A stretch of 64,000 nt of DNA, from the IMG/VR virus record IMGVR_UViG_3300009514_000013, positions 1 to 64,000 of that record; one strand, given 5' to 3'. A program made the position numbers and the translations under genes. This document shows, piece after piece, positions 33,943 to 50,396 of the stretch. The notes beneath the pieces are model-generated. The model was not told where the DNA came from and made no database searches. It saw only the letters and a program-made list of their open reading frames with translations. Origin of the DNA: a virus. Position 1 is the first letter of the stretch. The number at the start of each line of letters is the position of its first letter.

Positions 33943-33944
33943 AG

Positions 33945-34316: not shown

Positions 34317-34327
34317 ATCGCTTTAAC
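34312..34327. promoter_or_regulatory. 16-bp palindromic site GTTAAA-TCGC-TTTAAC
   Basis: contains upstream stop; TerL ATG 4 nt downstream. Confidence 0.65.
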
Positions 34328-34331
34328 ACCC

Positions 34332-36317
34332 ATGGCTGAACACTCTCTCCTCCACATCCGCAACCGAGCGATCCAGAAAGCCAGAGGCAACTACAACCAC
34401 TACGCCGAGTTCGCTCTTCGCAACAACTTAGGAGACCACATCAGGCAGGGAGTCCTTCACCGCATCTGGCAGGTTCACATCCAGCACTGTTGGAAGCATG
34501 GGTACGATCCAGCAATCCTGGCCCCATTTGCTCACGGAAAGTGCCAGCCCAAAGGTTCGTTGGTCCAAATGGCCGATGGGTCGAGAGTTCCTATTGAGAG
34601 GATCAACGGTGAACAAGTCATTGGTTTCGATGAAGAGGAATACTCGTTCTCTCCATCTTCTGCCCGGTCATTCCCAAACGGAGTCAAGCGAGTCCTCAGG
34701 TTGAATCTATGGTCTGGTCGTTCTGTTGAAGTAACCGAAAATCACCCACTCCTGACGGCCGATGGGTGGTCTCCAGCTACCAAATTGGAAGTGGGTGATC
34801 ATGTAGCTGTGTCTCGTAAAATTCCAGACGTTGGTCGTACTCGTCTACGTGAAGGTGAGGCGCGACTAATTGGGTATTTCATTGGGGATGGGGGGACAAC
34901 TACACGTCCGATTTTCACAGTAGCCGATGAAGTGATTGAGCAATCCTTTTGTGAGACTGCGAGGGGGCTTGGGTTTGATCCCAATTCTCACTGTTACCAA
35001 AAGACAGCGAAGACGGTATATGTCAAAGGTGCTAGGAAGTGGCTTCGTAGCATAGGCCTTCTTGGTTGCAACTCGCACACAAAGCGCATCCCGGAGAGCA
35101 TCTTCAAGGCACCTCTAGATCAGGTATCCGAGTGTCTCGCTGCTTATTTTGAATGCGATGGTAACGTCTCCACACAACGTACAGGGTCCGCTGAATACTA
35201 TTCGGTTAATCGAGATTTGCTTTCCGATGTCCAATCTCTCCTCCTGCGGTTCTCAATCAGATCTCAACTCAGACGAAAACGAGGTCGTTACAATGGTGAA
35301 GTTCACGAGTCTTGGCGCCTGACGATCACAGGGAGTGATAACCTCGAATTGTTCAGAGATCAGATTCCTGTGATCGGTTCGAAGCGGGAGAAGCTAAAGT
35401 CGATTCAATTGGTCAAGGCAAATGCGAATGACGATGGGGTACCTCTAGTGTACCGTGAGTACCTGTATCAAACTCCTTATTGGCATAAGAGGAATACCGG
35501 TGTTTCTCTCGACCAAATGTCAAAAAGGACTACCAACCGAGAGACTGTTCGGAAAGCAGCCTTAGCTGAAGGAAACAAGTATCTGATGAACTTGGTTTCG
35601 GATTGGGTGTCGTGGGATCGAATCGTATCGATTGAAGACATGGGTGAATTGGAGACCTTTGGGTTGGAAGTCGATCGTCTTCACACGTACATCACTAATG
35701 ACGTCATCGTTCACAACACGATTCAGCTAGTCGTTGGTTTCCCAACATTCCTACTCGGACAAGATCCAAACCAACGCATCAAGGTCATCTGTCAGAATGA
35801 CGTCAGAGCCATGGAGCGCGTCATGGGTATCTCTGCAATCATCAGATCAGCTCCTTACCAGGTCCTGTTCCCAAACGTCAGAGAGGTACCAAGAGAGCTC
35901 GCTAGGAAGAAAGGTCTACAGTCCAAATGGACTTCTCACGAGATCTTCTTACACAGAGAAGGCTTCGCCATTGACCCATCCGTTCAAGCAGCAGGCGTCC
36001 TCTCAGGCGGTACTGGTGGCCGTTGCGATCTCCTCATCTTTGACGATGTTGTTGACCAGAAGAACGCCATTGACCAACCAGAACTCAGACAGAAGGTGAT
36101 CGACAACGTAGACAACGTCTGGTCTCAAAGGCTCGAGCCGACAGGTAGAAAGCTCTTTGTAGGAACTCCATGGCATCAGGCCGATCTGACCCACAAACTC
36201 ATGGAGAGGCCATCCTGGTCGGTCTTACGCAACTGGATATCCGAAGACTTCAAACGGATTGAGATGGAGGTCTACAATCCACCACCTGGCTATCCGATTC
36301 CTGTGCTTCAGGAGTGA
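34332..36317 (+). CDS. terminase large subunit, N-terminal ATPase half, with intein
   Basis: APFAHGK/T Walker A split by intein; TGGRCDLLIFDD Walker B; GTPWHQADL motif III; no nuclease domain. Confidence 0.88.
   Translation: MAEHSLLHIRNRAIQKARGNYNHYAEFALRNNLGDHIRQGVLHRIWQVHIQHCWKHGYDPAILAPFAHGKCQPKGSLVQMADGSRVPIERINGEQVIGFDEEEYSFSPSSARSFPNGVKRVLRLNLWSGRSVEVTENHPLLTADGWSPATKLEVGDHVAVSRKIPDVGRTRLREGEARLIGYFIGDGGTTTRPIFTVADEVIEQSFCETARGLGFDPNSHCYQKTAKTVYVKGARKWLRSIGLLGCNSHTKRIPESIFKAPLDQVSECLAAYFECDGNVSTQRTGSAEYYSVNRDLLSDVQSLLLRFSIRSQLRRKRGRYNGEVHESWRLTITGSDNLELFRDQIPVIGSKREKLKSIQLVKANANDDGVPLVYREYLYQTPYWHKRNTGVSLDQMSKRTTNRETVRKAALAEGNKYLMNLVSDWVSWDRIVSIEDMGELETFGLEVDRLHTYITNDVIVHNTIQLVVGFPTFLLGQDPNQRIKVICQNDVRAMERVMGISAIIRSAPYQVLFPNVREVPRELARKKGLQSKWTSHEIFLHREGFAIDPSVQAAGVLSGGTGGRCDLLIFDDVVDQKNAIDQPELRQKVIDNVDNVWSQRLEPTGRKLFVGTPWHQADLTHKLMERPSWSVLRNWISEDFKRIEMEVYNPPPGYPIPVLQE
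34542..35717 (+). mobile_element. intein with LAGLIDADG homing endonuclease (392 aa)
   Basis: CQPKGS N-terminus, TENHPLL block B, LIGYFIGDG and LAAYFECDG, IVHN/T C-terminal junction. Confidence 0.93.
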
Positions 36318-36444
36318 TCAAGATCATGGACATTGCTGCCATCATAAGTTTGGTGCTGCTTCTGTCTGCAGTTCGAGGTTGGAATGATGAGGAGTAGACG
36401 GAAGTGAGCTTCGTCACAAGTCCTTGAAATCAGTTCTTTTTTGT

Positions 36445-36474
36445 TTGACCTCTCCGACCAGGTGTTTAAACTAT
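36445..36474 (+). promoter_or_regulatory. sigma70-type promoter TTGACC with TAAACT (N16) or AACTAT (N18)
   Basis: T-rich upstream element; ATG at 36481 without SD; heads DUF932 operon. Confidence 0.55.
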
Positions 36475-36480
36475 TTGTAC

Positions 36481-36948
36481 ATGAACAACACGGCAAGCAT
36501 CGAAGTGAAATCCACCAGCAAAAAACACACTACTCGCGACGATCGTGGGCGATTCGCTGCTGAGTGCATCACTTGCGGCGAAGCGAAATCAGACCCCATG
36601 AATGAAAAATGCGACGACTGCAACGCGCATGACTATGGACAATTTTAGGAGTAAGGAACGATGAAACTTTTCATTCGAAGCATTCCCGAAAACGTAACAT
36701 GGAACGAACTATTCGACCTGTGTGATAACGCTAGCAAAATGTCGGCCCTACTCGATGAACAGAACACTATCCGCAAGCGCGAGGGTCGTTCTACGCTACT
36801 TAGGACTGTGGTGCGACATAACCAGGTCGTTCGCCATCTGATGGATGTTGTCGGTCATGAAAGCTTCCCAGCATTCGCACATGCGAACGACTGCACTCCT
36901 GGCGACATGGCATTTGTACGATTTGCGTCACATCCGAAATATCTTTAG
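36481..36948 (+). CDS. two small hypothetical ORFs (36481-36648 with CxxC pairs; 36661-36948)
   Basis: follow the promoter; AGGAG/AAGGA RBS before 36661. Confidence 0.5.
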
Positions 36949-36983
36949 TGAAACCAACACAAGGAAAAGGAAAGGTAACAACA

Positions 36984-37859
36984 ATGAAACTGAACACAAT
37001 CGAAGCACTCGACAAGTACAACATCAACTTTGACGTCCGAAAGGTTCCCGTGACTCTCGCATCTGGAACACCAGTTCCAAACGTCAACGCAATGGTCCGG
37101 ACTGACACTCTCCAGCCATTTGAAGGAGTCTCGGTCTCCGATACCTACGAGGTAGTTCAGACCCGAGACTTCGCTGACATCATTGAGAGGGTCACTGGTA
37201 GATTCCAAGCAGATTTCATCAATGGTGGTTCGTTCAAAGAAGGTCGGGTTGTACATCTCCAATGCAAGCTACCTGACACGATTAGAGTCTTGGATACGGA
37301 TGACGTGATTGAGAAGTATCTGACCTTCGTCAATTCGTTTGACGGCTCATCACGGTTTCTCATCCTTCCAACATCGATTCGGATCTTCTGCCAGAACCAG
37401 ATGCCAGCACTGAACGCTGATGCTCGAGATCGAGGATTGAGGTTCAGTCACACTCGTTCGGTACGACAGCGGATTAAGCAAGCTGATGAAGCAATCCTTT
37501 CGGCTATGAACGCCTACAGGAAGACTGAGGAGACTATTAACCAGTTGGCATCGACTCAGTTCACCGATCAACAGTTCGAACAAGTCAACCGGATGATCTT
37601 CGGAGTTAAGGATGATGTAGAAGAGATTCCAACTCGAACGAAGAATGCAATGGACAAAACCCGAGATCTCTTTGAATCTGGTATTGGGTTGGATCGATGG
37701 AGGGGTACAGCGTGGGCTGCTTACAACGCAGCAACAGAGTATAGCGATCACCATCGATCGCTGAGAGCAACCACTAACAAGTTGGAATCTCAGTTGATGG
37801 GTTCTGGACTTCTCTTCAAGCAAAAGGCTCTTGGGGCGATCATGAACGTGGCTGCGTAG
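36984..37859 (+). CDS. DUF932-family protein
   Basis: YEVVQ, NSFDGS, TSIRIFCQN, RFSHT, GTAWAAYNAATEYSDH. Confidence 0.85.
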   Translation: MKLNTIEALDKYNINFDVRKVPVTLASGTPVPNVNAMVRTDTLQPFEGVSVSDTYEVVQTRDFADIIERVTGRFQADFINGGSFKEGRVVHLQCKLPDTIRVLDTDDVIEKYLTFVNSFDGSSRFLILPTSIRIFCQNQMPALNADARDRGLRFSHTRSVRQRIKQADEAILSAMNAYRKTEETINQLASTQFTDQQFEQVNRMIFGVKDDVEEIPTRTKNAMDKTRDLFESGIGLDRWRGTAWAAYNAATEYSDHHRSLRATTNKLESQLMGSGLLFKQKALGAIMNVAA

Positions 37860-37960
37860 GAAAGGTAGAATGGGATCATTATTTCGGGCGTATGGCCGGT
37901 AGATCTTCAAAAGAGAATGAGATCATGCGTGCTATGGGTACAATTCGTGGTTGGTGATCA

Positions 37961-38239
37961 ATGACTTGGGACTTCACAGGACTCAAACATGAGTACAGGT
38001 GCAATTCATGCGGATATTCAATCTACACTGAACCGGGAAAGAAACCTTCAGTTCTCTGTCCAGCGTGCAATCCGATCATTCTTCCTGGTCTAATGTTTGG
38101 AGACGATGACACTCTCCCAGGCTATCCTGTTGAACCTCCTGATGAAGAGTTGACTGAAGATGAACAAGCGAAGAAGAAGTTGGACAAGTTCTTTCACGAC
38201 CCAAAAGATCCGAAGAACAAGTGGTGGCCTGATGAGTAA
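37961..38239 (+). CDS. small zinc-ribbon protein
   Basis: CNSC, CPAC. Confidence 0.55.
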   Translation: MTWDFTGLKHEYRCNSCGYSIYTEPGKKPSVLCPACNPIILPGLMFGDDDTLPGYPVEPPDEELTEDEQAKKKLDKFFHDPKDPKNKWWPDE

Positions 38240-38299
38240 GTCATCAAAAGTGATGGGTTAAGCGTGTATGAGTACGCATCTCATCAAAAGTGAGGAGAT

Positions 38300-38878
38300 A
38301 TGACTACCTGGTTCACATCAGATCTACATCTTGGTCATAAACGGATGCTGGACTTCAGAAGAGATCCACTCGACCGACCATTCAACTCTGTTCAAGAGCA
38401 TGATGAGCACATCATTAGCCTATGGAACTCCAACGTTGACCCAAAGGACAACGTGTACATCCTGGGTGATCTGTCCTTCCTTCCGAAAGGCGAGCTGCTT
38501 GGAGCTCTGTATCGGATGAACGGTAACAAGCATCTGGTGCTCGGCAATCACGACAAGAGGAACCTGAACAACGAAGTGAAGAAGAGGTTCTGTTGGGTCA
38601 AGGACTACTATGAGCTGAAGTACGAAGGTCAACACATCGTGATGTCTCACTATCCAATGCTGGTCTGGAACAAGCACTACCGAGGTTCTTGGATGCTTCA
38701 TGGTCATTCTCATGGGCATCTCAAAGAGGACCCGTTGGCGAAGCGCATGGATGTCGGCCTAGATGCAGCGAAAAACCTATTGCCTAGTAAGGAGATGCGA
38801 CCACTCTCGTTCGAAGAGGTAAAGAAAGTGATGGACAATCGGGGATTCAAGGCGTTGGATCATCATGGGGCGCAATGA
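38300..38878 (+). CDS. calcineurin-like metallophosphoesterase
   Basis: SDLHLGH, LGD, GNHD, SHYP, HGHSH. Confidence 0.9.
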   Translation: MTTWFTSDLHLGHKRMLDFRRDPLDRPFNSVQEHDEHIISLWNSNVDPKDNVYILGDLSFLPKGELLGALYRMNGNKHLVLGNHDKRNLNNEVKKRFCWVKDYYELKYEGQHIVMSHYPMLVWNKHYRGSWMLHGHSHGHLKEDPLAKRMDVGLDAAKNLLPSKEMRPLSFEEVKKVMDNRGFKALDHHGAQ

Positions 38879-39762
38879 AAGGAAGGGCGATGAAACAATT
38901 GTATGACTTCTCGAATGATCGGAAGAGCGAATCCTTGATTGAGACAGTCAAGAAAGAATTTGAAGTGAAGAAACCAATCCTCGACCCACAAAAAGCTGCC
39001 GAGTATGCGAATGAGCACGGATTGCCTGTGCCGGGGCGGCGCAAACGACATGGTGGAACATTAGATGGATCGCCGTTCTTGATTCGGGAAATGAGGAACG
39101 GGAAGTTGTCCGACCGCAAATGGGTCAGTTGTAGTTCGTATGGGTATGGACATGCTTTTATGTTAGTCCCAACCGGAGAAACACGAAAATTGATGGAGCA
39201 AGAAGATGAGCCCAAAAACAAAGATACAAATCGCTCACGACATCAAGGAGGCAGCAGAAAGGCTGAAGAGTGCTTTGGTGAGTCTTCCAGCGAACAGTTT
39301 AGCGGTGGAGACCATAGAGGAACTAGTGCTAGCTGTGATTACAGCCAACCTAAAACTGCTCAAGCGTGCGACCAAACCTCAGCCCACGGAGTCAAGCCAA
39401 GAGGAGGATGGCGATGGTTAGAACTTGGTGAGTCATTGTCTGAACATGATCAACGTCGATGGTCAGCACAGAATCCAAACAAATGGGCTATGAAGAAAAA
39501 ACTCGACATGTTTGCGGATGAGTCTAGATGGCGCCGTCCCATCTTCGAAGGCAAAACAGATGTGGAACGCGCTATACTTGGTGAGATTCCAGACAAAAGG
39601 CGCCATAGGCCTGAATTAGCGGGTGTAGAGAGATGGTCTTGTCTCCGTCATGACAAGAGAGATGAAGACCATTGGCTTGCTTCAAATATCCCAGGAGCAC
39701 GTTCTGATTTCGATACAGCCGTTGGCTACGATTGTATGTACGGTGAAGAGTTCGAGGAATGA
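38875..39762 (+). CDS. hypothetical protein with nested alternative-frame ORF 39206-39421
   Basis: 295-aa ORF; middle third looks like the shadow of the nested ORF. Confidence 0.4.
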   Translation: MKGRAMKQLYDFSNDRKSESLIETVKKEFEVKKPILDPQKAAEYANEHGLPVPGRRKRHGGTLDGSPFLIREMRNGKLSDRKWVSCSSYGYGHAFMLVPTGETRKLMEQEDEPKNKDTNRSRHQGGSRKAEECFGESSSEQFSGGDHRGTSASCDYSQPKTAQACDQTSAHGVKPRGGWRWLELGESLSEHDQRRWSAQNPNKWAMKKKLDMFADESRWRRPIFEGKTDVERAILGEIPDKRRHRPELAGVERWSCLRHDKRDEDHWLASNIPGARSDFDTAVGYDCMYGEEFEE

Positions 39763-39852
39763 GAAGTATTGTGAAATTCGAATGGCTTGATGGTGATTGT
39801 TTTGGTCCGCGAACGATTATCCTTCGAGCTGGCAGCTCGAGGTCGAGGGTGA

Positions 39853-40047
39853 ATGATGGCTAAAAAGAAAAAGAAAAAGAACCACAAAGGCAAACAGAGC
39901 GTCTACCTTCCCGAACCGATTCTCAACGAGATCCGTTCCGAATCAGCAAGACAAGAGCGATCCATGTCATGGCTCATCCAGAAGTCTTGGGAGCTATCAA
40001 GGAAGAAGCTCATGTCACTGCAGGATATAGAGGTCCTGACGAAGTGA
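39853..40047 (+). CDS. ribbon-helix-helix protein, CdbA/CdbB-like (MXAN_4361/4362, TIGR04563 family)
   Basis: KQSVYLPE..LNEIRSESARQERSMSWLIQKSW matches remembered family pattern KQSLYFPE..L.EI..EA.RQDRSLSW.VQ.AW. Confidence 0.78.
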   Translation: MMAKKKKKKNHKGKQSVYLPEPILNEIRSESARQERSMSWLIQKSWELSRKKLMSLQDIEVLTK

Positions 40048-40314
40048 TCGGTCGTCTCCTCAGACTGAATGTCTTCATAGCTGCTATTTGGGTACCTTGG
40101 ATTGTTGGGAAAGTGGCGATTGAACACACTGGTTTGGATGTGACGAAGTTTCCATTTCCTGTACCTCAGACATGGGCTGTTGGCTTCGTATTCGTCGCTG
40201 GTACATTCTTAGTTGGATACCTTGTGTTGCGAATTATCGAATGGGTCTGGTACGGGGATATTCTTTGACACTTTTCTCCTTCACTTTCCCCGATCAATCA
40301 CTCACCATTTCTGA

Positions 40315-41340
40315 ATGAAGAAAATCCTAGTCCTAGGTGGTGGTCATCAAGGCAAGATCATCGCAAAAGAACTCGCACCTGATTTCGAAGTAATGGTTGG
40401 TGACATTTACGAGACCGTCTTACCAAACGTGGATCCTATATATCTTGATGTTACAGACACTGAGATGCTCAAGGACGAAGTCCTCGGATACGATCTCGTC
40501 ATTGGTGCTCTCCCATCGAAGTTCGGATACCAAGCTGTTAGAGCCGTCCTAGAGGTCGGTGTTCCAATGATAGACCTCTCGTTCTGTCCAGAAGATTTGA
40601 TGGAGTTAAATGGTCTAGCCAAAAAGAATGGCACCTTCCTCATTTCAGATTGTGGTCTCGCTCCAGGTCTCTCCAATCTCATTGTTGGCTACGAATTCAG
40701 CAAGAGAGAAGTAGAGAACATCAAGATCATGGTTGGTGGAGTGGCCAAAGACATCGATGCACCGTATGGGTACAAGGTCAGCTGGTCTGTTGATGACCTC
40801 TTAGAGGAATACACTAGACCTGCAAGGATTCGTATTGATGGAGAGAATGTCCAGATCCCAACGCTCACCAACTACGAGGTTGTAAACATCCCAGGAGTTG
40901 GAATCATGGAAGCGTTCTGCACCGACGGTCTCCGATCACTACTGCGAATTCACGGCCCTAAGAACCTCGTTGAGAAGACTCTCAGGTGGAGAGGTCATGT
41001 TGACCAGATCAAGCCACTGATACGTGATGGAACGTTCGTAGAGACCATCACAAGAGAATGCCAGAATGGTGAGGATCTCGTGGTGATGAGGATCGAGATG
41101 GATGATGATGTCATTCAGACAGTCATCAAGGCATCTGATGGAATCTCCGCTATGTCTCGTGGAACAGCTCTCACTACAGCGATGACAGCTAGGTTGGTTC
41201 TGGAAGATGATGTGTTTGTGAATTCGAAAGGAGTCTACTTCATGGAAGACTTCTTACCAGAAGAGTCGATGAAGTTGTTAGAGATGTTGGAGACTCGAGC
41301 TGGGGTAGCGTTCAATTGGTTCAAGAAAGGAGAAGAGTAA
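40315..41340 (+). CDS. saccharopine dehydrogenase / lysine 6-dehydrogenase-like oxidoreductase
   Basis: LVLGGGHQG Rossmann, DCGLAPGLSN, WSVDDLLEEY, EKTLRWRGH, AMSRGT. Confidence 0.85.
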   Translation: MKKILVLGGGHQGKIIAKELAPDFEVMVGDIYETVLPNVDPIYLDVTDTEMLKDEVLGYDLVIGALPSKFGYQAVRAVLEVGVPMIDLSFCPEDLMELNGLAKKNGTFLISDCGLAPGLSNLIVGYEFSKREVENIKIMVGGVAKDIDAPYGYKVSWSVDDLLEEYTRPARIRIDGENVQIPTLTNYEVVNIPGVGIMEAFCTDGLRSLLRIHGPKNLVEKTLRWRGHVDQIKPLIRDGTFVETITRECQNGEDLVVMRIEMDDDVIQTVIKASDGISAMSRGTALTTAMTARLVLEDDVFVNSKGVYFMEDFLPEESMKLLEMLETRAGVAFNWFKKGEE

Positions 41341-41388
41341 TCGCGACAAAACACTGTCACGATTCTGTCGCGATTCTGTCACGATTCT
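41339..41388. repeat. three tandem 11-bp repeats CTGTCRCGATT plus one inverted copy
   Basis: copies at 41354, 41365, 41376; inverted AATCGCGACA at 41339. Confidence 0.8.
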
Positions 41389-41423
41389 AGTCAATCGGCT
41401 GGGTTAAGAAAGGAGAGGGGTGA

Positions 41424-41654
41424 GTGAAAAAGGCATGGAATGTTATCGTAAGAAACGTGGTAGGTGGTCTGGTTGGCTACGGAGCACTCTCAGCATCAAA
41501 TGACTTCATGGGTATCTTCTTCCCGAAAGTGGAGTCGAGGACTTTCGCTTATGTGGTTGGGGTTGGTATCGGTTTGGTCTTTTTCGTCATATGTATGAAA
41601 CCGATCGTGGATTTGGAAGCTAATCAATCCACATCGGATCCAAGTAGAGAGTGA
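41424..41654 (+). CDS. small membrane protein
   Basis: two TM segments; AGGAG RBS. Confidence 0.55.
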   Translation: MKKAWNVIVRNVVGGLVGYGALSASNDFMGIFFPKVESRTFAYVVGVGIGLVFFVICMKPIVDLEANQSTSDPSRE

Positions 41655-41895
41655 GTTCATCGACGTTCAGCTTGCTCACTGGTTTCCCATCTCGAATCTC
41701 TTCGTTCTGAAACTTCTCTTGAATGAACTGACGAGCTGCTTCCAAGATCTCGTCACACTTCGGTGGTTCTTCCCAGATATTCAGGCACTTCTTGCACAGT
41801 GGAGTAATCACTTTTGACTTGTCGAGAGTGTAGGTCCCAAGAGAGGTCTGGCATTGCATGCATTCGATTTCGATGAGTGGTTGTGTGTGACTCAT
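41620..41895 (-). CDS. small zinc-finger protein, lone leftward gene
   Basis: CMQC, CKKC. Confidence 0.5.
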   Translation of the reverse strand: MSHTQPLIEIECMQCQTSLGTYTLDKSKVITPLCKKCLNIWEEPPKCDEILEAARQFIQEKFQNEEIRDGKPVSKLNVDELTLYLDPMWID

Positions 41896-41916
41896 GCGGT
41901 GAGTATACGCCAGTAC

Positions 41917-41932
41917 GTTAAAGTGCTTTAAC
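41917..41932. promoter_or_regulatory. 16-bp palindromic site GTTAAA-GTGC-TTTAAC
   Basis: in a divergent intergenic gap. Confidence 0.6.
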
Positions 41933-42005
41933 ACAGGGAATGCCCTCTTCAGATTTCTGTTGACCTCTGTTGAACGGGTGGATCATGCTTTCGAGTGTGG
42001 GTGAA

Positions 42006-42212
42006 ATGAAGAAATTGAAATCGCTTAGGTACTCGCTTGGCTCCTCGCTTTACTACTCGCTTTACTCCTCGCTTGAGGACTCGCTTAGGCACTCGCCTAG
42101 GTACTCGCCTTGGTCCTCGTTTAGCTCCTCGCTTTACTCCCCGCTTTGGTTCTCGCTTTGGTCCTCGCTTAGGTTCTCGCTTTGGTCCCAAATGTGTTTA
42201 ACAAAGGAATAA
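42006..42212 (+). CDS. SLxx repeat microprotein 8 (about 14 units, several variant)
   Basis: MKKLK-(SLxx)n; TTGACC-N18-CATGCT at 41960-41989 upstream. Confidence 0.68.
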   Translation: MKKLKSLRYSLGSSLYYSLYSSLEDSLRHSPRYSPWSSFSSSLYSPLWFSLWSSLRFSLWSQMCLTKE

Positions 42213-42216
42213 ACCA

Positions 42217-42561
42217 ATGACAGAAGGAACAGAACTGTTTGAAAGCGTAATCCATCACTTCTCAGAGCAAGTGAATGAGCTTGCTAAGGAGAAAGGTTGG
42301 TGGGAAGAAGATCGCAACGACGGAGAGATGATTGCTCTCATCCATAGCGAATTGTCAGAAGCTCTTGAAGCTCTCAGGCATGGCAACCCACCAAGTGAGA
42401 AGATTCCAGAGTTCAGCCAAGTCGAAGAAGAACTCGCTGATGTTCTCATCCGCATCTTTGATTTCGCCTACACCCGTGGATGGAACCTAGGTGAAGCTGT
42501 TGTGGCCAAGCATGACTACAACCAGAGTCGGCCATACAAACATGGCGGAAAGAAGTTCTAG
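42217..42561 (+). CDS. MazG-like nucleotide pyrophosphohydrolase
   Basis: LIHSELSEALE, EEELADVLIR, N..RPYKHG. Confidence 0.85.
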   Translation: MTEGTELFESVIHHFSEQVNELAKEKGWWEEDRNDGEMIALIHSELSEALEALRHGNPPSEKIPEFSQVEEELADVLIRIFDFAYTRGWNLGEAVVAKHDYNQSRPYKHGGKKF

Positions 42562-42712
42562 ATGAAACTGGTAAAGATTTCGACTCAAGGTTGGTCGGTG
42601 AAAACGGAACTACCGGTAAAGATCCGATCTCTAGCTTCTTTTCTAAGACATTCGATAGCGTGGTCATTTGGATTCAACGAAGAAGATGAGTTAGTCGAAA
42701 GAGGTAGGATCA

Positions 42713-42916
42713 GTGAGTGAAACAACAACGGTGTTTGAAGTCGAATGCATAGCTGAGACTGAGAAAGCAATCCTAGTCACTGACAATGCAGGTTTTGAAG
42801 AATGGATTCCAAAGAGCCAGATTCATGATGATTCTGAAGTGTACAAAGAAGGCACCTCAGGAGATCTCGTGGTCAAGACTTGGATGGCGAAGAAACTCGG
42901 ATTGGATACGGAATGA
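42713..42916 (+). CDS. small conserved phage protein
   Basis: ETEKAILV..WIPKSQI motif. Confidence 0.6.
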   Translation: MSETTTVFEVECIAETEKAILVTDNAGFEEWIPKSQIHDDSEVYKEGTSGDLVVKTWMAKKLGLDTE

Positions 42917-43122
42917 GAATGATCGAGTTCAGTCCGAATCGCATGTACTCTGCGCCAAAAGCTTCTCTTCGATACAGGTTACAAACCGAAGTTATAAACT
43001 TCTTTTGGCCTTACTCGCCTTTAGAGTTTGAACCTATTCAACTTGGGCTGATCTCTTCTCTAACTTCAATTACACATTGCGTAAGACAAGAGCTTGAAGT
43101 AAGGAGCACCCATGACAAGTGA
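42913..43122 (+). CDS. small ORF, possibly degenerate SLxx-like
   Basis: ASLRYRL..SPLEF..SSL..QELE; ATGA coupling. Confidence 0.35.
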   Translation: MRMIEFSPNRMYSAPKASLRYRLQTEVINFFWPYSPLEFEPIQLGLISSLTSITHCVRQELEVRSTHDK

Positions 43123-43645
43123 CAGAAGTTGGTTCCAGACCTACACTGCAAAAGTATTCAGGCCCAAGGAACCCGAATCAGAACTTGTGTGTATCGAAGA
43201 CATCGCCCATCACCTATCGAATATTTGCCGCTACAACGGAGCATGCCGATCGTTCTACTCAGTAGCTCAGCACTCAGTTCTCGTCTCAAGGATTGTTCCG
43301 AGAGAAGATGCACTTTGGGGATTGCTTCATGATGCAGGTGAAGCTTACATAGGTGACATGGTCCGGCCTCTGAAGATCCACATGCTGGAGTTCCAGAAAG
43401 TAGAAGAAGGAGTCATGAAAGCTGTGTGTGAACGCTTTGGACTCAATCCAAAGCAACCTGCATCGGTGACCAAAGCTGACATGACTATCCTTGCAACAGA
43501 AAAGAGAGATCTCTGTAGAGAAGCTCCGATTCCATGGGGTATTGAGCACATCGCTCCAATCACAACAACGATCAGTCCATGGCCACCGCAGAAAGCAAAA
43601 GAGATCTTTTTAGAAGAGTTCCGGAATCTATTTGAGGGAGAGTGA
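43112..43645 (+). CDS. HD-domain phosphohydrolase (5'-deoxynucleotidase-like)
   Basis: IEDIAHHLS..CRYNG, YSVAQHS, LLHDAGEAY..D. Confidence 0.87.
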   Translation: MTSDRSWFQTYTAKVFRPKEPESELVCIEDIAHHLSNICRYNGACRSFYSVAQHSVLVSRIVPREDALWGLLHDAGEAYIGDMVRPLKIHMLEFQKVEEGVMKAVCERFGLNPKQPASVTKADMTILATEKRDLCREAPIPWGIEHIAPITTTISPWPPQKAKEIFLEEFRNLFEGE

Positions 43646-44070
43646 TGACATTGGTAATGGGAAGTCGAACAACACCTGGTCTGCTTGAAGAAGTGAAAGA
43701 GAAGAAGTCTGAACGGAAGTGGGAGAAGCCATCCGGCGAACAAGCTGTTCAGTATGATGAGGGAAAACTTCGGTATGATCTGATTTCTCGATTTGCTCTC
43801 CGTGAAGTTGTCAGAGGAGCTACGTTTGGAGCAAACAGCAAGTATGACGACTGGAATTTCCTTAAAGGAAAAGGGTTGTCAGTCTCAGCTCAGTTGGCTT
43901 CTATCGAACGCCATTTCAACAAAATCATGATGGGAAATGACATCGATGAAGAGTCTAAGGTTCACCATCTTGGGCTGATTGCGCTGCGGGCGATGATGGC
44001 TTACGAGACTCTGATGTTTCACCCAGAACAAGATGATCGCTTCTACAAGAACAACAAGCCGAAGAAATGA
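43642..44070 (+). CDS. DUF5664 / dATP-dGTP diphosphohydrolase-like protein
   Basis: YDEGKLRYDLI, FGA..KY..WN, D.DEESKVHHL. Confidence 0.78.
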   Translation: MMTLVMGSRTTPGLLEEVKEKKSERKWEKPSGEQAVQYDEGKLRYDLISRFALREVVRGATFGANSKYDDWNFLKGKGLSVSAQLASIERHFNKIMMGNDIDEESKVHHLGLIALRAMMAYETLMFHPEQDDRFYKNNKPKK

Positions 44071-44104
44071 ACGCCATCCAACAACTGCTCTTTAGTCAAG
44101 TAGA

Positions 44105-45970
44105 ATGTCGAATGCACAAGAACTATTTGAGAATCTCATCCTCACCGAAACTGATCTCTCTGGATTAGCCGCAACCATCGCTGTCCTCGCTTCTCCTAGC
44201 GATCGAGGTTCTGCACTTACTCGCATCTATATTGGTGTCGACTACTGCAACAAGCTCCTCAATCAACTTCTCCAATTGACAGATCAAGAGCTTCCATTCC
44301 GAGACAAGTTCTTGAAACTTAGTGATGTGTACCAACGGCGTTTGAGTGCTCTTGAAGAGATCGGAAATCAAAGTCGTATACCTACGGTTGGAGCTATGAC
44401 TACCGTTTCTTGGGTTGTTGAACTGGTTGATGAACCACTCCGTGAGATTGTTGATGGGTTGAAGACACTGGCAGCGATTTCATCAATCGAGAACTTCTTG
44501 CGTTGGTGTCTGCTCAGAGTGTGATAAGTTCGAAATTGAAATGACCAAGTGCGTTGGCTGCGAATGGCCATCAGGTTGTAAAGCTCAATTCAACCCACCC
44601 AAAATCATGATCCGGAATCGTTATCGGTACTTGTGCAAAGCTCATGTTCAGATAGCCGAAAGAGATCCGATCTCAACAGCAGAAACTTTCTGGGCGCTCG
44701 ACAATTGGAAACCGAAAGATATGGTTTGTCCGCTCTGTGATGGTCCGTTGATGACTACTGGCGTCTGTGTGAGTTGTGACGAACTCCTAGTCAGACGGGA
44801 AATAGCTGGTCTTTTTGACAAGTTGGTGACTGAAGAGGTTCCTGATGAGGACGACGAATCCTCAGAAGCTGCCTAGGTTAAAGCGATTTAACACATGGAG
44901 AACACCGACGAGATTCGTATCCATCTCACCACCCTGGTGCAGAACGCTGCGAGAGCCTGCAAAATAGCCGGTCTCGAGCATGAATTCAGAAAGCTGTCCC
45001 AAGTCCAGGTAGATTTCAAAACCCGCCTAGCGTGCGTTTTCAAAGCTGTCAGGCTGGTGGAGACTTCCATCTTGGTGAATTGGGGTAAATCGCTCATGAC
45101 CCCAGGTTTTTCTGGCCTAGCCGCGGAATCTATTGCTATCGTTCGATTAGGGGCTATCACTGCTCTCACGGAGGCTGATGTAGATGTCAAAAGGAAATGG
45201 ATCCAAGAACTGGTCAACCGTTCCGACTGTAAAGTTCTCTCCTACTCGAAAGAAGGAACTTGAGAAGCTATTCGAAGAACGTGTCGAACAGTACCTGGGT
45301 GATCCGACGATCAAAGAATTGGTGCAACGATACAGAAAGAAGATCGATCTACAAGAAGAGATCTTCGCATCTCCAATTGATGTTCATGAAGCTTTCGACG
45401 CGGTAGTTGTTGCCCACTGCTTCGCAGATCACGAACCAGTTGACCTAGCGAAGAAGGTTGAAAGTAACCTAGTTATGGTTCGTGCGATGTGTCGCCACTA
45501 CAAGAAACTTGCTGACATCTGGAAAGAGAACTGTGATGCTCTTTGCGAATTGGTGAAAAATGACGACGTTTGAAGAGAAGTACCCAAATGTGAAACCAGC
45601 TCCTCTTCTTTCGGATAGCGATCGAAATAGGTGGATCGTAGAAAAAGAACCACAGAAGGTAGAGACAGAAGATCTCGTTGTAGAGGAGAAAAAGGCTGAA
45701 CCTGTTGTTGATCGATGGGCGAAGATTGGCAAACTCTCTCTCAATCTCGACGGGATCGGTGGTACAGTTCCAGAACTTCTCTTGCTCCTCATTGCAGAAG
45801 TTAGAGAGTTGGTGATGCAACCAAAACAAGAAACAGTTGCTTCAGTGGTTCAATCCAGACCGGATTTGCAGAATGCTTTGAAAGACAGCATCGGAGAGAT
45901 TCAAAAGATGATGGGTGCTCTCAACCGAGGTAAGCCAGGAACTCCATTGAAGAAGGTGAATGGAGAATGA
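44105..45970 (+). CDS. run of five hypothetical ORFs (44105-44524, 44541-44876, 44895-45263, about 45184-45573, 45560-45970)
   Basis: tile the strand with short gaps or overlaps; 44541 has CxxC pairs. Confidence 0.5.
44877..44892. promoter_or_regulatory. 16-bp palindromic site GTTAAA-GCGA-TTTAAC
   Basis: fills the gap between a TAG and the ATG at 44895. Confidence 0.65.
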
Positions 45971-46167
45971 AGAAGGTTGAAATGAAACCTCTTGGCTCCT
46001 CGCTTTGGTTCTCGCTTGAGGACTCGCTTGAGGACTCGCTTGAGTTCTCGCTTGAGGACTCGCTTGAGGACTCGCTTAAGGACTCGCTTTGGTCCTCGCT
46101 TGGCTCCTCGCTTTACTCCTCGCTTGGCTCCTCGCTTTGGTTCTCGCTTAGAGAGGAGTTGAAGTAG
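45967..46167 (+). CDS. SLxx repeat microprotein 9 (about 14 units)
   Basis: MKKVEMK-PLGS-(SLxx)n-ELK; GGAG RBS, ATGA overlap. Confidence 0.72.
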   Translation: MKKVEMKPLGSSLWFSLEDSLEDSLEFSLEDSLEDSLKDSLWSSLGSSLYSSLGSSLWFSLREELK

Positions 46168-46621
46168 TGATTCCTAAACCATCTCCATGGTCCAAGTGGG
46201 TTGTTAAATCTCTACAGATTGTAGGTGGAACCTTCTTGGGGTCTCTCATAAGCATGTTGGCAAGCAACTTCTTCCCTATATCACCGGGATTTCTACTTCT
46301 TTTGTATGGTCTCTCATGCTCCTGGGGTGTCGTCTTCATCACCGACCTCATGATTTTCTGGTCAAAACGTAAAAAGTCCTGATAAGGAAGAACGTAATGA
46401 AAAATGAACACCAAGCTGTCGTACTAGCAATGGCTCAGCACATTTACAAAGATCTTGTCGCCAAGAACATCACTAGTGAAGTGATGACGGATCCACCAGA
46501 AGGAGAAAAAGCTGACCAACTTGCCGACGCTCTAGGCAACGCAGCTGTCTTCTCAATCCAGGCTGCTGAGATCTTCCTCGCATCAGCAGAAGGTTGGTTT
46601 GGTGACGAAGAGGGTAAGTAA
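46167..46621 (+). CDS. two small ORFs (46167-46382 membrane protein; 46397-46621 hypothetical)
   Basis: hydrophobic segments; coupling; AAGGA RBS. Confidence 0.5.
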
Positions 46622-47421
46622 TGGCTGTTGCTCTCATTAAAGAAGACATTGATCGTTGGTTCGAATATGGAGTCTACCCGCGAACAAGGACGATCTACTT
46701 AGGTGGTATTCATGGATACGATCATGGTGAAGATGAAGACCATTTGGGTGAGTCTGGGATCTATTGGAACACCGCACGACGGATGATTCAGAGCCTACAC
46801 TTACTTGATAGCAACATTGATCAACCTATTACTGTTGTGATGAATAGCGTTGGTGGTGACTGGCAGCATGGAATGGCAATCTACGATGCGATTCGTTTGT
46901 CAAAATGTCATATAACGATCATTAACATGTCTCATGCTCGTTCCATGACGAGTTTGATTTTCCAAGCAGCCGATCTGCGCATCATTGCACCGAACGGCTA
47001 TTACATGATTCACGATGGGACCAGTGGATTTGGAGGTATCCCAAGATCAGCTATCAACTGGATACAGTACGAAAAAGATGTGATCTTGCCAAAGATGTAC
47101 AGTATTTATTTGGAACGTATCAAAGAGGTGGATGGTAAAGGGGAGTACAAAGTTGACATCCACGAAGCAGCTGAGATTTTGAATTCGAAAATCCCAGATG
47201 GTTCAAAGCGAATTCTTCCATCGAGAGGGATTGAAGGTATCAAACTCTCTCATATTCAAGCTCTTTGTTCTCAAGATACGATCTTCACACCTACGGAAAT
47301 GATCCGACTTAACTTTGTTGATCGGATGATGGAAACTGGTGATCTTGTGGGGGCTTATGTGAATCCGAAGATGCATGGTCTTCCGACAGGATTGGAGAGT
47401 CTTCAAGATGAAGACGAATAG
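46621..47421 (+). CDS. ClpP-like protease
   Basis: RTIYL, MNSVGG, AIYD, ARSMTSLI, YMIHD. Confidence 0.8.
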   Translation: MAVALIKEDIDRWFEYGVYPRTRTIYLGGIHGYDHGEDEDHLGESGIYWNTARRMIQSLHLLDSNIDQPITVVMNSVGGDWQHGMAIYDAIRLSKCHITIINMSHARSMTSLIFQAADLRIIAPNGYYMIHDGTSGFGGIPRSAINWIQYEKDVILPKMYSIYLERIKEVDGKGEYKVDIHEAAEILNSKIPDGSKRILPSRGIEGIKLSHIQALCSQDTIFTPTEMIRLNFVDRMMETGDLVGAYVNPKMHGLPTGLESLQDEDE

Positions 47422-47429
47422 GACTGCTT

Positions 47430-48578
47430 ATGAAACGGAAAAAATGCGGCAAATGCGGCAAAGTCAGACAGATGGCTTTGAACGGAAAAAGAAAAGATGG
47501 GGCTCAGAAATATAGAAACGTATGTAATTCTTGCAAAGGTAAATCTCCTAATAATCGTCGAAAAGTTGAACGTCCCATCAAGACAAAGATTCCAGATGAA
47601 GCTCCGACCAAAAACCCACAAATACTGAAACTGTGGCAGCTGGCTTCAACACGACCTCAAGCATTCGAAGAACTCTGCGATCGTATGGATGTGTCACCGA
47701 AGATCATGCGGAAACTGATCCAAGAAGCTAGGGATGGTGGTTTAAGCATTCATGTAGAAAACGATCATGTTGGTGCTCGAGTCCAATCTATTGATGACGA
47801 ACAAAATCTTTTCCACAAGAACGATATTTCTCCTGTGGTCGGTAAAGAAGTTGTTGTAGGTGTTATTTCCGATACCCACTACGGATCGAAGTACTGCCTT
47901 CGTGGTCACATCAAAGACGCAGTGAAGAAGATGTACGAAGCTGGTGCTCGAATCATTCTTCATCCTGGAGATGTGATCGATGGTTGTTATCGACACGGTG
48001 AGTTCGAACTCACTCATTACGGTTTAGAGGATCAAGTTCGTGACCTTTTCAAGAATCTACCCAAACACAAGGGTTTATCGTATCACTGCATCACTGGCAA
48101 TCATGACGACACGTTCTGGGACCGGACCGGAGTCAATGTTGGTCACTATATCGAAGGGACCTTTAGGCGTCGTGGACGAAACGATATTCACTTCTACGGC
48201 CAACGAGGAGCTTTCCTCAATATATACGGCGTTCGAGTACATTTGTGGCACCCACGAGGTGGAGGGAGTTACGCTCGAAGTTATGCCCTCCAGAAAAAAC
48301 TAGAAGGGTACATGCCGGGTGAGAAGCCAAAGATCATGGTGGCTGGCCACTGGCATCAGTACTGTCATATTCACGAGAGAGGTATCCACGCATTTATGTG
48401 CCCGACCTTCCAAGGGGGAGGATCTGCGTTTGGTCGCTCGATGAGAGGTTCTCCGAATATCGGTGGATTGTTGTTTAGATGGCGTCTTGCGGAAAACGGA
48501 ACCCTCCGACAATTCAATTCCGAGAAATTCACCTATTACGAGAGAGAAGTTGTCCACGAGGTTGGAGAATCTGAGTAG
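47430..48578 (+). CDS. metallophosphoesterase with N-terminal zinc ribbon and HTH
   Basis: CGKC..CNSC; SDTHYGS, GDVIDG, GNHD, GHWH. Confidence 0.85.
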   Translation: MKRKKCGKCGKVRQMALNGKRKDGAQKYRNVCNSCKGKSPNNRRKVERPIKTKIPDEAPTKNPQILKLWQLASTRPQAFEELCDRMDVSPKIMRKLIQEARDGGLSIHVENDHVGARVQSIDDEQNLFHKNDISPVVGKEVVVGVISDTHYGSKYCLRGHIKDAVKKMYEAGARIILHPGDVIDGCYRHGEFELTHYGLEDQVRDLFKNLPKHKGLSYHCITGNHDDTFWDRTGVNVGHYIEGTFRRRGRNDIHFYGQRGAFLNIYGVRVHLWHPRGGGSYARSYALQKKLEGYMPGEKPKIMVAGHWHQYCHIHERGIHAFMCPTFQGGGSAFGRSMRGSPNIGGLLFRWRLAENGTLRQFNSEKFTYYEREVVHEVGESE

Positions 48579-48660
48579 TTTGGCAGGAACCTAGCTCCTG
48601 ACGTATCTTCAATCTAGAGACTTACTTGGATCTGTTCTAAGGGGTTCTCCGGAATGAGAT

Positions 48661-49023
48661 ATGAAAAGTTTCCTGTTAGCAATCGCCCTATTCCTCGTAC
48701 CTGCCATGGCATCGGCCGATTGTCGCGTTGTTCGTTCAGCTACTAAGAAAAGTAAAGAGTTCGTAACAACCATCTCATGCACGATCGAAGGTCAGTTGGT
48801 GGACCTCCTCCTCATCCGCCAACACCTGGCTGCGGTGAAAATCCAAAACAAAGATTCTGGTTCGTTGATAACGGTGCATGAGGATGATCTCATCTTGAAT
48901 GTTGAAGCATGGTCATGGGCGATCATCCGCCTCCAGAACATCATCCATGAACAAGGTAAAGTGATTCAGAAGCTACAAAAGTCTTGTCGGAAGCATTGTT
49001 TTACGACTAAAGATAAGAAGTGA
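48661..49023 (+). CDS. secreted hypothetical protein
   Basis: signal peptide ending ASA-D. Confidence 0.55.
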   Translation: MKSFLLAIALFLVPAMASADCRVVRSATKKSKEFVTTISCTIEGQLVDLLLIRQHLAAVKIQNKDSGSLITVHEDDLILNVEAWSWAIIRLQNIIHEQGKVIQKLQKSCRKHCFTTKDKK

Positions 49024-49331
49024 CTTCAGACAAGACTCCTCCTGAAGAATGGCTGTTCGAGCAACCGGATCCGGTCAAACAATATGCGAATCGACTACGA
49101 GATGAGTGGTATCGGGAAGACATTAAACTTCTCAGATCGAGAATTCGTGACCTCGAACAGCAGAAAGTAGAAGTTGGAAAAGAACGTGATCGATGGGCGA
49201 AGCGTATGAAGCTCCTTGAAGCTCGAATCAGACACGCAGCTGAAACTCTCGATGGTGGCTTCAGTCCACCCGAGATCAATGAAATCCGCAAAACCAGAGG
49301 TCTACCAATCATCAAACAACTGGAGGACTAG
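49020..49331 (+). CDS. coiled-coil hypothetical protein
   Basis: ORF abuts the TerL C-half start. Confidence 0.5.
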   Translation: MTSDKTPPEEWLFEQPDPVKQYANRLRDEWYREDIKLLRSRIRDLEQQKVEVGKERDRWAKRMKLLEARIRHAAETLDGGFSPPEINEIRKTRGLPIIKQLED

Positions 49332-50105
49332 GTGTCAATTCCAATCCGTCTCAAGTCGATTCCTCTATGGGTTGAACACTGGTCAGAAGAATCACTCCGG
49401 AAGAGATACTCCCAAGAACCAAGAGCATTCGAACGCGGATTCAGACTCAAGGCATTCTCTGATGATGAAGCAACATTCCCGAGCTTCTCCCAATGCGAAG
49501 TCCCTGGGATCACTCTTGGAGAGATTCAACGATCGAACTGGCCCAAGTTCACAGGAGTCGACCTCTCATCTAAGAAGCGTCCTGGTAACACCATTGCCAC
49601 GGTTGCAGTCGATCCGAAGACAAGACGTCGATATCCCATAGACATTCGATATGGTGCCTGGAGGTCATCTGAGACGGCTGAGCAAATCCGTATTGTTGAT
49701 GAACTCTTCAGCCCGATGGTTATCATGGTTGAAGACAACGCTTACCAAGAGGCTCTCCTGGATTGGATCTCTGATGACAAGTCTCGGTTTCCGTATTGGG
49801 TTAAGATCGAAGCCACTACCACTACAGGTGGTAGAAAGTCGGATCTAGAGAAAGGTCTCCCCGGACTTGAGGTCGAATTCTCGAAAAAGGGTTGGGCGTT
49901 TCCCCTATCCGAGTATGAGAATGTGACTCCTGATGAGGCACCACCAGCTGGCCACTGGGCGCGTTTAGCCCAAGAACTTCGCCATCACCCCATTGCAGCT
50001 ACATCGGACGGTGTAATGGCTTTGTGGTTCGCCAGGCAAGGTATTGAACTCTACGGCGGAATGGCTTTCCACGATGTCCAAATTGGAGACTTGACAGTCC
50101 GCTAA
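49332..50105 (+). CDS. terminase large subunit, C-terminal RNase H-like nuclease half
   Basis: PLW.E.W linker, FTGVDLS, VEDNAYQ, SDGVMALWFA; GGAGG RBS before GTG. Confidence 0.82.
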   Translation: MSIPIRLKSIPLWVEHWSEESLRKRYSQEPRAFERGFRLKAFSDDEATFPSFSQCEVPGITLGEIQRSNWPKFTGVDLSSKKRPGNTIATVAVDPKTRRRYPIDIRYGAWRSSETAEQIRIVDELFSPMVIMVEDNAYQEALLDWISDDKSRFPYWVKIEATTTTGGRKSDLEKGLPGLEVEFSKKGWAFPLSEYENVTPDEAPPAGHWARLAQELRHHPIAATSDGVMALWFARQGIELYGGMAFHDVQIGDLTVR

Positions 50106-50120
50106 CACTAATTTGATCTT
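50091..50120 (+). promoter_or_regulatory. candidate promoter TTGACA-N18-GATCTT for downstream ncRNA
   Basis: perfect -35; same N18 xAxxxT geometry as other candidate promoters here. Confidence 0.45.
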
Positions 50121-50129
50121 TTATAGGTT

Positions 50130-50316: not shown

Positions 50317-50396
50317 GGGGATGAGAAGGGTTCGACAGTCTGATGAAATCCTGAAAGGGACCAGGCTGGACCAGCGTTCGATTCGCTGCATCTCCA
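50317..50396 (+). ncRNA. tmRNA tRNA-like-domain-only RNA (mini-ssrA-like)
   Basis: acceptor GGGGATG/CATCTCC-A with G3.U70; GGTTCGAC D-loop analogue; helix CAGTCTG/CAGGCTG; GAC; T arm CAGCG-TTCGATT-CGCTG. Confidence 0.78.

Follow-up and report, generated by a model that had tools for sequence, protein, structure and literature searches.

How does a phage package its DNA when the two enzymatic domains of its large terminase subunit (TerL) are encoded by genes 13 kb apart, and are the two products ever joined into one chain? This question is raised by bases 1-64000 of the IMG/VR record IMGVR_UViG_3300009514_000013 (G000), the stretch analyzed here and referred to as the window; the whole record is a single metagenomic contig of 84,362 bp, of linear class and about 90% complete. 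An ATPase gene, terL-N (34332..36317, + strand, ATG start, a 661-residue precursor or 269 residues without its intein), is followed 13,014 bp downstream by a nuclease gene, terL-C (49332..50105, + strand, GTG start, 257 residues). Our analysis makes it highly probable that the terminase of this phage consists of two separately translated chains that work together, with the ATPase chain additionally needing protein splicing.

Two genes for one large terminase subunit

To relate the two open reading frames (ORFs) to known terminases, they were compared with phrog_38, a TerL profile of 760 positions. Residues 468-648 of terL-N matched profile positions 324-479 (E 1.7e-23) and residues 10-234 of terL-C matched positions 485-699 (E 4.4e-8), while a six-frame search of the whole record with the same profile gave positions 324-484 and 482-698, respectively. 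Since these coordinates abut, the two ORFs make up a single TerL that is divided within the inter-domain linker. They are not read as one polypeptide: terL-N has its stop codon at 36315-36317 and terL-C a new start at 49332. Each half is an ORF in its own right, with a separate start and stop; the break falls at the domain linker, the ends are conserved across the family, and both ORFs lie on the same strand, ATPase first, with unrelated genes in between. No TerL match besides these two was found by the six-frame search of the 84,362 bp, PHROG scans of the remaining large ORFs returned tail and head genes and no further terminase, and three 100%-complete relatives contained exactly two TerL matches each. 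The split into an ATPase and a nuclease gene, as claimed in a preliminary description of this DNA, is thereby upheld; an intact terL elsewhere, which that description had named as a finding that would count against the split, is absent from the record and from the three complete relatives.

The ATPase half has the motifs of an ASCE ATPase, namely a Walker A sequence (APFAHGK, interrupted by an intein and continued with T), Walker B (LLIFDD) and GTPWH. Its N-extein (residues 1-70, 34332..34541, + strand) ends in the Walker A residues ...APFAHGK, and its C-extein (residues 463-661, 35718..36314, + strand) holds the remainder of the ATPase domain, Walker B, GTPWH and the linker tail ...GYPIPVLQE. 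All three motifs, Walker A, Walker B (FDDxxD) and TPW, are kept in 17 aligned N-halves, and the family profile built from such halves matches the solved TerLs 8dgc_E (5.2e-8) and 4bij_A (1.2e-7). The C-extein is 67% identical to the N-half of one relative (G001) and 49% identical to that of another (G002). The Walker B and GTPWH motifs and the end ...PPGYPIPVLQE were thus described correctly beforehand, but the Walker A motif is broken by an intein of 392 residues that was missed. In G001 the N-half (L097:6509-7468) carries about 80 extra C-terminal residues past the usual ...GYPIP end, which may resemble a KTSC domain.

The intein (residues 71-462, 34542..35717, + strand) is located in the P-loop between GK and T and contains a LAGLIDADG homing-endonuclease domain. 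Pfam Intein_splicing matched residues 80-462 (1.5e-15) and LAGLIDADG_3, nested within it, residues 264-345 (6.7e-19), with the two LAGLIDADG-like motifs LIGYFIGDGG and LAAYFECDGN. The signature residues of a class 1 intein are present, namely Cys71, the block B residues T135-E-N-H138, a terminal VHN (H461-N462) and Thr463 at position +1 (T463-IQLVVG). Because an interrupted Walker A motif cannot bind ATP, the P-loop has to be restored by removal of the intein, and we predict from these residues that the intein splices. Relatives without the intein have an unbroken AP[FW]GHGK[TS], and none of the nine relatives whose N-half was read contains it. At the level of a pattern match only, a fused TerL (L037, 784-aa frame) shows GK|C...HN|T at the P-loop position of the window intein. 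Similarly, by pattern and tblastn only, a contig from a Gemmatimonadetes metagenome-assembled genome (MAG; L110) shows an intact Walker A, an intein-like insert farther downstream and then an adjacent split.

The two genes differ in the way their translation would start. terL-N (34315-34336) and a MuF-like head gene (55560-55581) have a 22-nt motif in common, AAATCGCTTTAACACC[C/A]ATGGC, which covers the start codon; there are 2 matches in the sequence vs 0 expected in 100 shuffles and a weaker copy at 10563-10590. The motif holds the inverted repeat GTTAAA-TCGC-TTTAAC directly 5' of the ATG and may represent a shared translational operator. When start motifs shared between terL-N and other genes were sought in G001, G002 and G005, where start codons are uncertain, no recurrence beyond 12-13 nt was found. 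The start context of terL-C is of a different kind: it has its own GGAGG ribosome-binding site (49322..49326, + strand), as reported before, and the TAG of the upstream ORF (49329-49331) abuts its GTG, an arrangement that points to translational coupling.

The nuclease assignment of terL-C and the first peptide given for it earlier were confirmed by its translation, the phrog_38 match and its predicted fold. Stand-alone homologues of the nuclease half numbered 81, with lengths of 198-277 aa, identities of 36-65% and aligned N-termini. D77, E134 and D226 are invariant in 31 C-half sequences and by analogy would be the metal ligands of an acidic catalytic triad. An AlphaFold2 model of terL-C (pLDDT 80.6) had TerL nuclease domains as its top Foldseek matches (8dgc_E, 1.3e-6; G20c, 5m1k, TMt 0.71; SPP1, 2wc9, TMt 0.64), and the fold matches in the PDB comprised the TerL nuclease domains of PhiV-1, D6E, G20c, SPP1, T4/RB49, human cytomegalovirus and P22. 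On this model, terL-C is predicted to have the RNase-H-fold nuclease domain of TerL. While the fold search gave these matches, a profile of the C-half alignment had 0 matches among PDB sequences. In tblastn searches of 50,697 phage records the C-half had no match at 1e-5, and the C-extein of the N-half matched 377 records, all at less than 60% identity (25-33% in those listed), which indicates that the clade has no close cultured member. Directly past terL-C, at 50317-50399 (+ strand), an Rfam match to transfer-messenger RNA (tmRNA) was observed that spans only about 83 nt (56 bits with a gathering score of 47, E 8e-20); ARAGORN made no call at this position.

We also determined the constraint on the two halves. 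Between the window and G001 the synonymous divergence (pS) is 0.74 for the N-half and 0.87 for the C-half, i.e., synonymous sites are saturated, while the proteins are 66% and 61% identical, respectively. The ratio of non-synonymous to synonymous change (dN/dS) of the N-half is about 0.10 against G001 and about 0.14 against G002. These values indicate that both halves are under purifying selection. The two genes are separate, intact and conserved, and their ancestry can be followed through their relatives.

Relatives, the age of the break and the question of rejoining

An exhaustive representative search returned 754 matches at E<=1e-3. Among the best 150 of these, 70 had a length of at most 300 aa, 6 of 301-420 aa, 64 of 421-700 aa and 10 of more than 700 aa, and judged by these lengths the TerL family contains roughly as many stand-alone as fused forms. 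Fused homologues from metagenomes were 43-46% identical. Nine stand-alone ATPase halves (122-348 aa) were also found, and the contigs of two of these equal nuclease-half contigs in size. A query with a single protein detected no related loci, and a scan based on the alignment yielded 70 loci in IMG/VR. In 45 of them both domains lie in one open frame and in 8 the frames are separate, with gaps of 4, 67, 82, 215 and 534 nt and of 1.7, 5.5 and 8.1 kb; the other 17 have no N-half in the available DNA and consist of 12 C-frames of stand-alone size (232-336 aa), 4 long frames and 1 locus at a contig end. Six further loci came from a collection of prokaryote genomes (1 stand-alone, 4 fused, 1 adjacent split), the respective MAGs being labeled Myxococcales, Latescibacterota, Xenobia, Planctomycetota, Gemmatimonadetes and Saccharimonadales.

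The whole records behind the 15 closest loci were then searched. Both halves were present in 9 of the 15, always on the same strand and with the ATPase first, and the other six, which contain a C-half only, are fragments of 10-67% completeness. The distances from ORF to ORF in the nine relatives were 1,695, 5,251, 8,039, 13,822, 14,089, 15,133, 15,592, 15,801 and 16,815 bp. G002 is colinear with G000 over the whole length, starting at the lysis and replication genes and extending to the tail genes, and the terL halves are found at corresponding places. These data bear on the possibility of an artefact or decay, in which the contig would be misassembled or the phage would be defective after an insertion into its terL. 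Such an explanation gains some plausibility from a single, linear metagenomic contig that is about 90% complete; however, the same order, strand and break point recur in nine independent records from other samples, the synteny with G002 extends over the whole genome, and both halves have kept their catalytic residues under purifying selection. We consider an artefact or decay extremely improbable, and the misassembly that the preliminary description had listed as a caveat is not what we observe.

A tree of 61 nuclease domains (IQ-TREE quick search, midpoint root, with 10 loci left out whose best segment was shorter than 180 residues) placed all split forms in one clade of 26 rows (SH-aLRT 95) together with five fused forms. 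The window falls in a subclade of 14 rows (support 88) that contains far-split or stand-alone forms only, so that the far-apart layout looks inherited within this subclade. At least five changes between fused and split forms are needed on the tree, and fission at the linker has therefore occurred, or been reversed, several times. Taken together, it is very likely that the break is old and was inherited by a clade of uncultured phages with genomes of roughly 85-93 kb.

An 8-bp repeat at the break had been noted in the preliminary description and read as the scar of an old insertion or as a site of rejoining by excision or splicing. CGATTCCT does occur at 36295..36302 (+ strand), in P-I-P codons of the N-half tail, and at 49357..49364 (+ strand), in S-I-P codons of the C-half head, and both copies are in codon phase 1; we assign no function to either copy. 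While positions and phase were given correctly, the repeat is found at chance level, with 5 copies in the window vs 3.17 expected and at least 5 copies in 19 of 100 shuffles. In the window and nine relatives, we looked for words shared by the final 90 nt of the N-half and the initial 90 nt of the C-half. The longest common word was 8 nt in the window, 8 nt of a different sequence in G002 and 5-7 nt in the other eight, and mismatched pairs of genomes shared a word of at least 8 nt in 7 of 90 cases. By these comparisons CGATTCCT is neither conserved in the relatives nor above background and does not constitute evidence of rejoining, and its interpretation as an insertion scar was not borne out either.

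At the protein level the picture is different from that of the DNA word: the N-half tail (...G-Y-P-I-P...) and the C-half head (...S-I-P-L-W...) align on the same linker residues of fused relatives, Y-x-I-P-L-W, of which CGATTCCT encodes I-P, and their tblastn footprints overlap by 9-24 nt in five fused loci. Duplication of a short stretch at the break would fit this overlap, which is, however, not long enough to prove such an event.

Rejoining at the DNA level would mean that recombination between the 8-bp repeats excises the 13-kb interval in some genomes and restores a one-chain terL. The in-phase copies at both ends, the fact that a join there gives a linker as in the fused relatives, and the in-phase 8-mer of other sequence that G002, the closest full-length relative, has at the same motif are compatible with such an event. 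In addition to the chance-level count and the short words in the other eight genomes, it is contradicted by the absence of tyrosine and serine recombinases (Phage_integrase and Resolvase) from the whole 84,362-bp record, in agreement with the earlier remark that no integrase is visible. Furthermore, both halves keep their own stop, start and ribosome-binding site across a clade with saturated synonymous sites, and excision would lose 28 ORFs. We would give this mechanism almost no chance.

Joining after transcription or translation, through a giant or trans-splicing intron or a split intein, has precedents in the intron-split terL of the Jug phages and Twort and in the spliced terL of herpesviruses, and terL-N itself is predicted to use protein splicing. 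Against it, an Rfam scan (E<=1) of both strands of 33000-51000 detected no group I or group II intron and no ribozyme, the only matches being the tmRNA and one chance match to a long non-coding RNA. The N-half end ...VLQE and the C-half start VSIPI... have neither a Cys/Ser/Thr +1 context nor an HN motif, the abutting profile coordinates (484/482) leave no room for the halves of a split intein, and the 13-kb interval is densely coding. This route, too, is very improbable indeed. A ribosome hop was likewise discarded as a candidate along with the split intein, given that there is no spare sequence at either end and a gap of 13 kb. With no Rfam intron, no recombinase, abutting profiles and an interval that varies from 1.7 to 17 kb and differs entirely in content from one relative to another, the suggestion that the gene is rejoined by excision or splicing finds no support.

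The interval and its genomic setting

The segment between the halves (36318..49331, 13,014 bp) is an accessory-gene island with 28 ORFs of at least 60 aa. Outside the two terL ORFs, genes were called by our own greedy longest-ORF procedure and not by a gene finder, and they were assigned by Pfam and PHROG scans. In line with the accessory genes announced for this interval, we found DUF932, two metallophosphoesterases, a saccharopine-dehydrogenase-like protein, MazG, an HD dNMP phosphatase, a dATP/dGTP diphosphohydrolase N-domain, a ClpP-like protease and two ORFs with SLxx repeats. The promoter proposed for the start of the interval could not be substantiated: the site at 36445-36472 matches 9 of 12 positions, and consensus scans of 33000-51500 gave fewer sites than shuffled sequences for both promoters (11 vs 20.2 expected) and terminators (9 vs 15.6).

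None of the 28 interval ORFs matched G002 or G005 in tblastn searches (E<=1e-5), compared with 46 of 91 ORFs elsewhere (Fisher p = 9.7e-8). In a looser search (E<=1e-4) the ORF at 49020-49331 had a homologue in the interval of G001, and the ORF at 44895-45263 matched in G001 and G002. The 9.6 kb upstream of terL-N (24748-34316) had no match in G002 and one in G001; as this part is not conserved either, terL-N stands alone as a conserved gene amid about 24 kb of variable DNA that separates the replication module from the structural module. The intervals of the relatives carry other cargo, including a DnaJ-domain protein, PTPS/QueD-like and SOD-like proteins, HNH, ThyX, an EEP nuclease, a TET-associated glycosyltransferase, a 1,015-aa Laminin_G_3 protein and Dam, and no integrase, resolvase or transposase was seen in the domain scans of the window or in the relatives' intervals. 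These comparisons characterize the space between the halves as an accessory-gene slot with apparently fast turnover, a clean example of hypervariable cargo bounded by two essential half-genes.

Several products of the interval deserve mention in their own right. A nucleotide-pool cluster at 42217-44070 comprises a MazG-like pyrophosphatase, the HD dNMP phosphatase (phrog_318, 6e-69) and the dATP/dGTP diphosphohydrolase N-domain (PF18909, 3e-21). Since PurZ/adenylosuccinate synthase (PF00709) is absent from the record, this cluster is not a kit for 2-aminoadenine (Z-base) synthesis. The ClpP-family protease at 46621-47421 (PF00574, 1.9e-19), a candidate prohead protease, matches PHROG families annotated as 'head maturation protease' and is located away from the portal and head genes. 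At 47430-48578 follows an Mre11-like metallophosphoesterase with a Lar-like N-terminus.

The genome layout begins with an endolysin-type amidase, RuvC and a Dam methylase, followed by a replication and recombination block (helicase, DnaB, primase, family-B polymerase, RecA-like and SbcCD-like genes) that extends to about 24.6 kb and by unknown ORFs up to terL-N at 34.3 kb. The portal (53337), the MuF-like head protein (55577) and the major head protein (60244) lie downstream of terL-C, and baseplate and tail genes occupy the final 20 kb; the baseplate-wedge genes suggest a contractile tail. terL-N is thus located within the variable region, past the replication and recombination genes, and terL-C heads the structural module.

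Two families of repeats were also observed. A 22-nt repeat, TGTCACCAGAGATCAGTCTCAA, is present in four direct copies (82-100% identical, spacing of 32-34 nt) at 9810-9942, in or beside the ORF of a helix-turn-helix protein (9448-10566) between the helicase and DnaB-like genes. These copies resemble iterons and may mark a replication origin. A 12-nt unit, TCGCTTnGGnnC, forms at least 10 dispersed arrays on the coding strand of small ORFs, which translate into (S-L-x-x)n tetrapeptide repeats such as SLEDSLEDSLEFSLEDSL. The arrays are located at 3884-4153, 4574-4843, 5691-6008, 7367-7700, 12442-12728, 17146-17360, 22035-22053, 30966-31216, 41962-42200 and 45941-46167. Judging from their translations, the ORFs encode a family of small repeat proteins whose members are dispersed over the genome, two of them within the terL interval.

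A probable two-chain terminase and known systems

How would such an enzyme work? In the scheme that we favor, terL-N would be translated as a precursor of 661 residues, from which the class-1-type P-loop intein would excise itself to leave a 269-residue ASCE ATPase, the motor. terL-C would be translated from its own GGAGG and GTG, 13 kb downstream, into a 257-residue RNase-H-fold nuclease, the cutter, and the two chains would together supply the terminase function. The chains would associate non-covalently, either stably or only at the initiation and termination of packaging, and both this association and its stoichiometry are inferred. A complex predicted from the alignment of the N-half C-extein and the C-half alignment scored 0.26 and 0.15 vs a mark of 0.32, in runs without controls from which the first 70 residues of the ATPase were absent owing to the intein, and these scores weigh neither for nor against association.

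Cultured phages provide a precedent. In KellEzio (KU647626) genes 4 and 10 are annotated as 'terminase large subunit, ATPase domain' and '..., nuclease domain', with five genes and about 1.8 kb between them, and the two-gene annotation is found in four Arthrobacter phages of the genus Kelleziovirus (cluster AT), namely KellEzio, BeatusComedenti, Kitkat and DanielleIgnace. Phages of this type form plaques, and therefore the two-gene layout works; a working two-chain enzyme is accordingly the economical reading, and cultured phages with such an annotation, conserved boundaries, catalytic residues and purifying selection all support the true two-chain TerL that was one of the two alternatives raised in the preliminary description.

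Several observations weigh against this reading. When T4 gp17 was split at the linker, the ATPase and nuclease activities were kept and DNA translocation was abolished, as reported by Rao and Black 2010 (PMC3012670), so that a two-chain motor is not expected to work by default. Binding of the chains and viability of the phage are predictions made from the genes, and the cultured KellEzio precedent may be an independent split, given its remote homology (hhalign probabilities of 96% for the N-halves and 90% for the C-halves at about 21-22% identity). The record is linear and about 90% complete, and a further terL in the missing 10% is therefore not strictly excluded. Moreover, the high-GC relatives have dN/dS values of 0.40-0.52, which were obtained on stop-to-stop frames and are weaker evidence, some adjacent splits, that of L017 with its gap of 4 nt for example, could stem from frameshift errors in sequencing, and the tree is a quick search that needs at least five changes between fused and split forms.

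A variant of the two-chain enzyme deserves separate consideration. The spliced ATPase alone could form the translocating ring on the portal, with the nuclease free or transiently recruited to cut at initiation and at headful or terminal-repeat termination. The location of the genes in different genome blocks, the variable region and the head of the structural module, would suit such a division of labor, as would their different start contexts, with a motif shared with the MuF-like gene in one case and a coupled GGAGG start in the other. Neither end has an added docking domain, since the N-half tail and the C-half head span only the normal linker. On the other hand, docking could be provided by the conserved ends themselves, ...Y-P-x-P in the N-half tail and ...P-L-W in the C-half head, and we regard the transient nuclease as possible, if rather unlikely.

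We are more doubtful still that the split was selected for what it allows, i.e., the swapping of the island, a separate timing or amount of motor and cutter, or both, beyond being a tolerated accident. Under this hypothesis the half-genes would act as fixed anchors between which homologous recombination among co-infecting relatives swaps the whole island as a cassette, with flanks that cannot be lost by deletion. Motor and cutter would be made at different times or in different amounts, terL-N sharing its start motif with a head gene and being gated by the intein, and terL-C opening the late structural operon. If a selected split were real, the packaging motor would translocate DNA without a covalent link between ATPase and nuclease, contrary to the outcome of the T4 gp17 split. 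In the electrostatic motor model as outlined in Rao and Black 2010 (PMC3012670), the C-domain moves against the N-domain through a hinge. The present clade and the cultured Arthrobacter phages, all with a cut linker, offer a natural opportunity to learn which motor models depend on a covalent connection.

TerL is a standard marker for phage phylogeny and for checks of genome completeness. Stand-alone halves, which make up about half of the best 150 matches, will be mis-scored as truncated or missing TerL, and no Pfam domain was found on 81 of the 82 proteins listed in the search for nuclease-half homologues.

The window shares domains and domain order with the one-chain TerL of the T7 type, represented by PhiV-1 (8dgc chain E), T7 gp19 ('DNA maturase B', 4bij) and phrog_38, and 8dgc chain E is both the best PDB sequence match of the N-half and the best fold match of the C-half; in contrast to these single polypeptides, the linker is cut and two genes are present. 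Coding sequences in pieces are also known from other phages and from herpesviruses. The Jug phages have group I introns in the gene, with RNA reads across the joints (PMC12880540), terL of Staphylococcus phage Twort consists of three coding sequences (PMC13729910), and herpesvirus terL (UL15/UL89) consists of two exons that are spliced across an intron containing 2-5 genes (PMC6466031), so that its gap, like that of the window, holds genes. Whereas these genes are rejoined at the RNA level into one chain, the halves in the window have their own start and stop, and neither a ribozyme nor a splice signal was found. A split gene of another kind, that of the tail tube, has been described in phiRIO-1 (PMC4819975).

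The intein, too, has counterparts. Inteins a and b of mycobacteriophage TerL1, at or near the P-loop, were shown to splice (Kelley 2016, PMC5050341), and the TerL of Microcystis phage Mic1 has an intein in its ATPase domain with Thr at +1 (PMC7156551). The window intein resembles both in carrying a homing endonuclease and in its location within the ATPase domain, at the P-loop or close to it, and it differs from them in being part of a stand-alone ATPase half instead of a one-chain TerL. An enzyme that would need both protein splicing and two-chain assembly is a combination that was not found described in the literature searched.

The closest parallel is the KellEzio group. The only printed mention of its two terminase genes that we found is a one-sentence remark in Klyczek 2017 (PMC5513430), and our literature search, with subscription journals and supplements outside its reach, found no functional study of a two-gene TerL. 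As in the window, separate ATPase and nuclease genes lie on one strand, ATPase first, with unrelated genes in between. Unlike in that group, the gap in the window extends over 13 kb with about 28 ORFs, the halves belong to different genome modules, the ATPase half contains an intein, the genome has 84 kb instead of 59 kb, and baseplate-wedge genes are present. The two-gene terminase itself is already annotated in cultured phages, and the window is an extreme form of this little-studied layout, to which it adds a P-loop intein in a stand-alone ATPase half, a lack of conservation limited to the interval and its upstream neighbor, and an 8-mer at the break that occurs at chance level.

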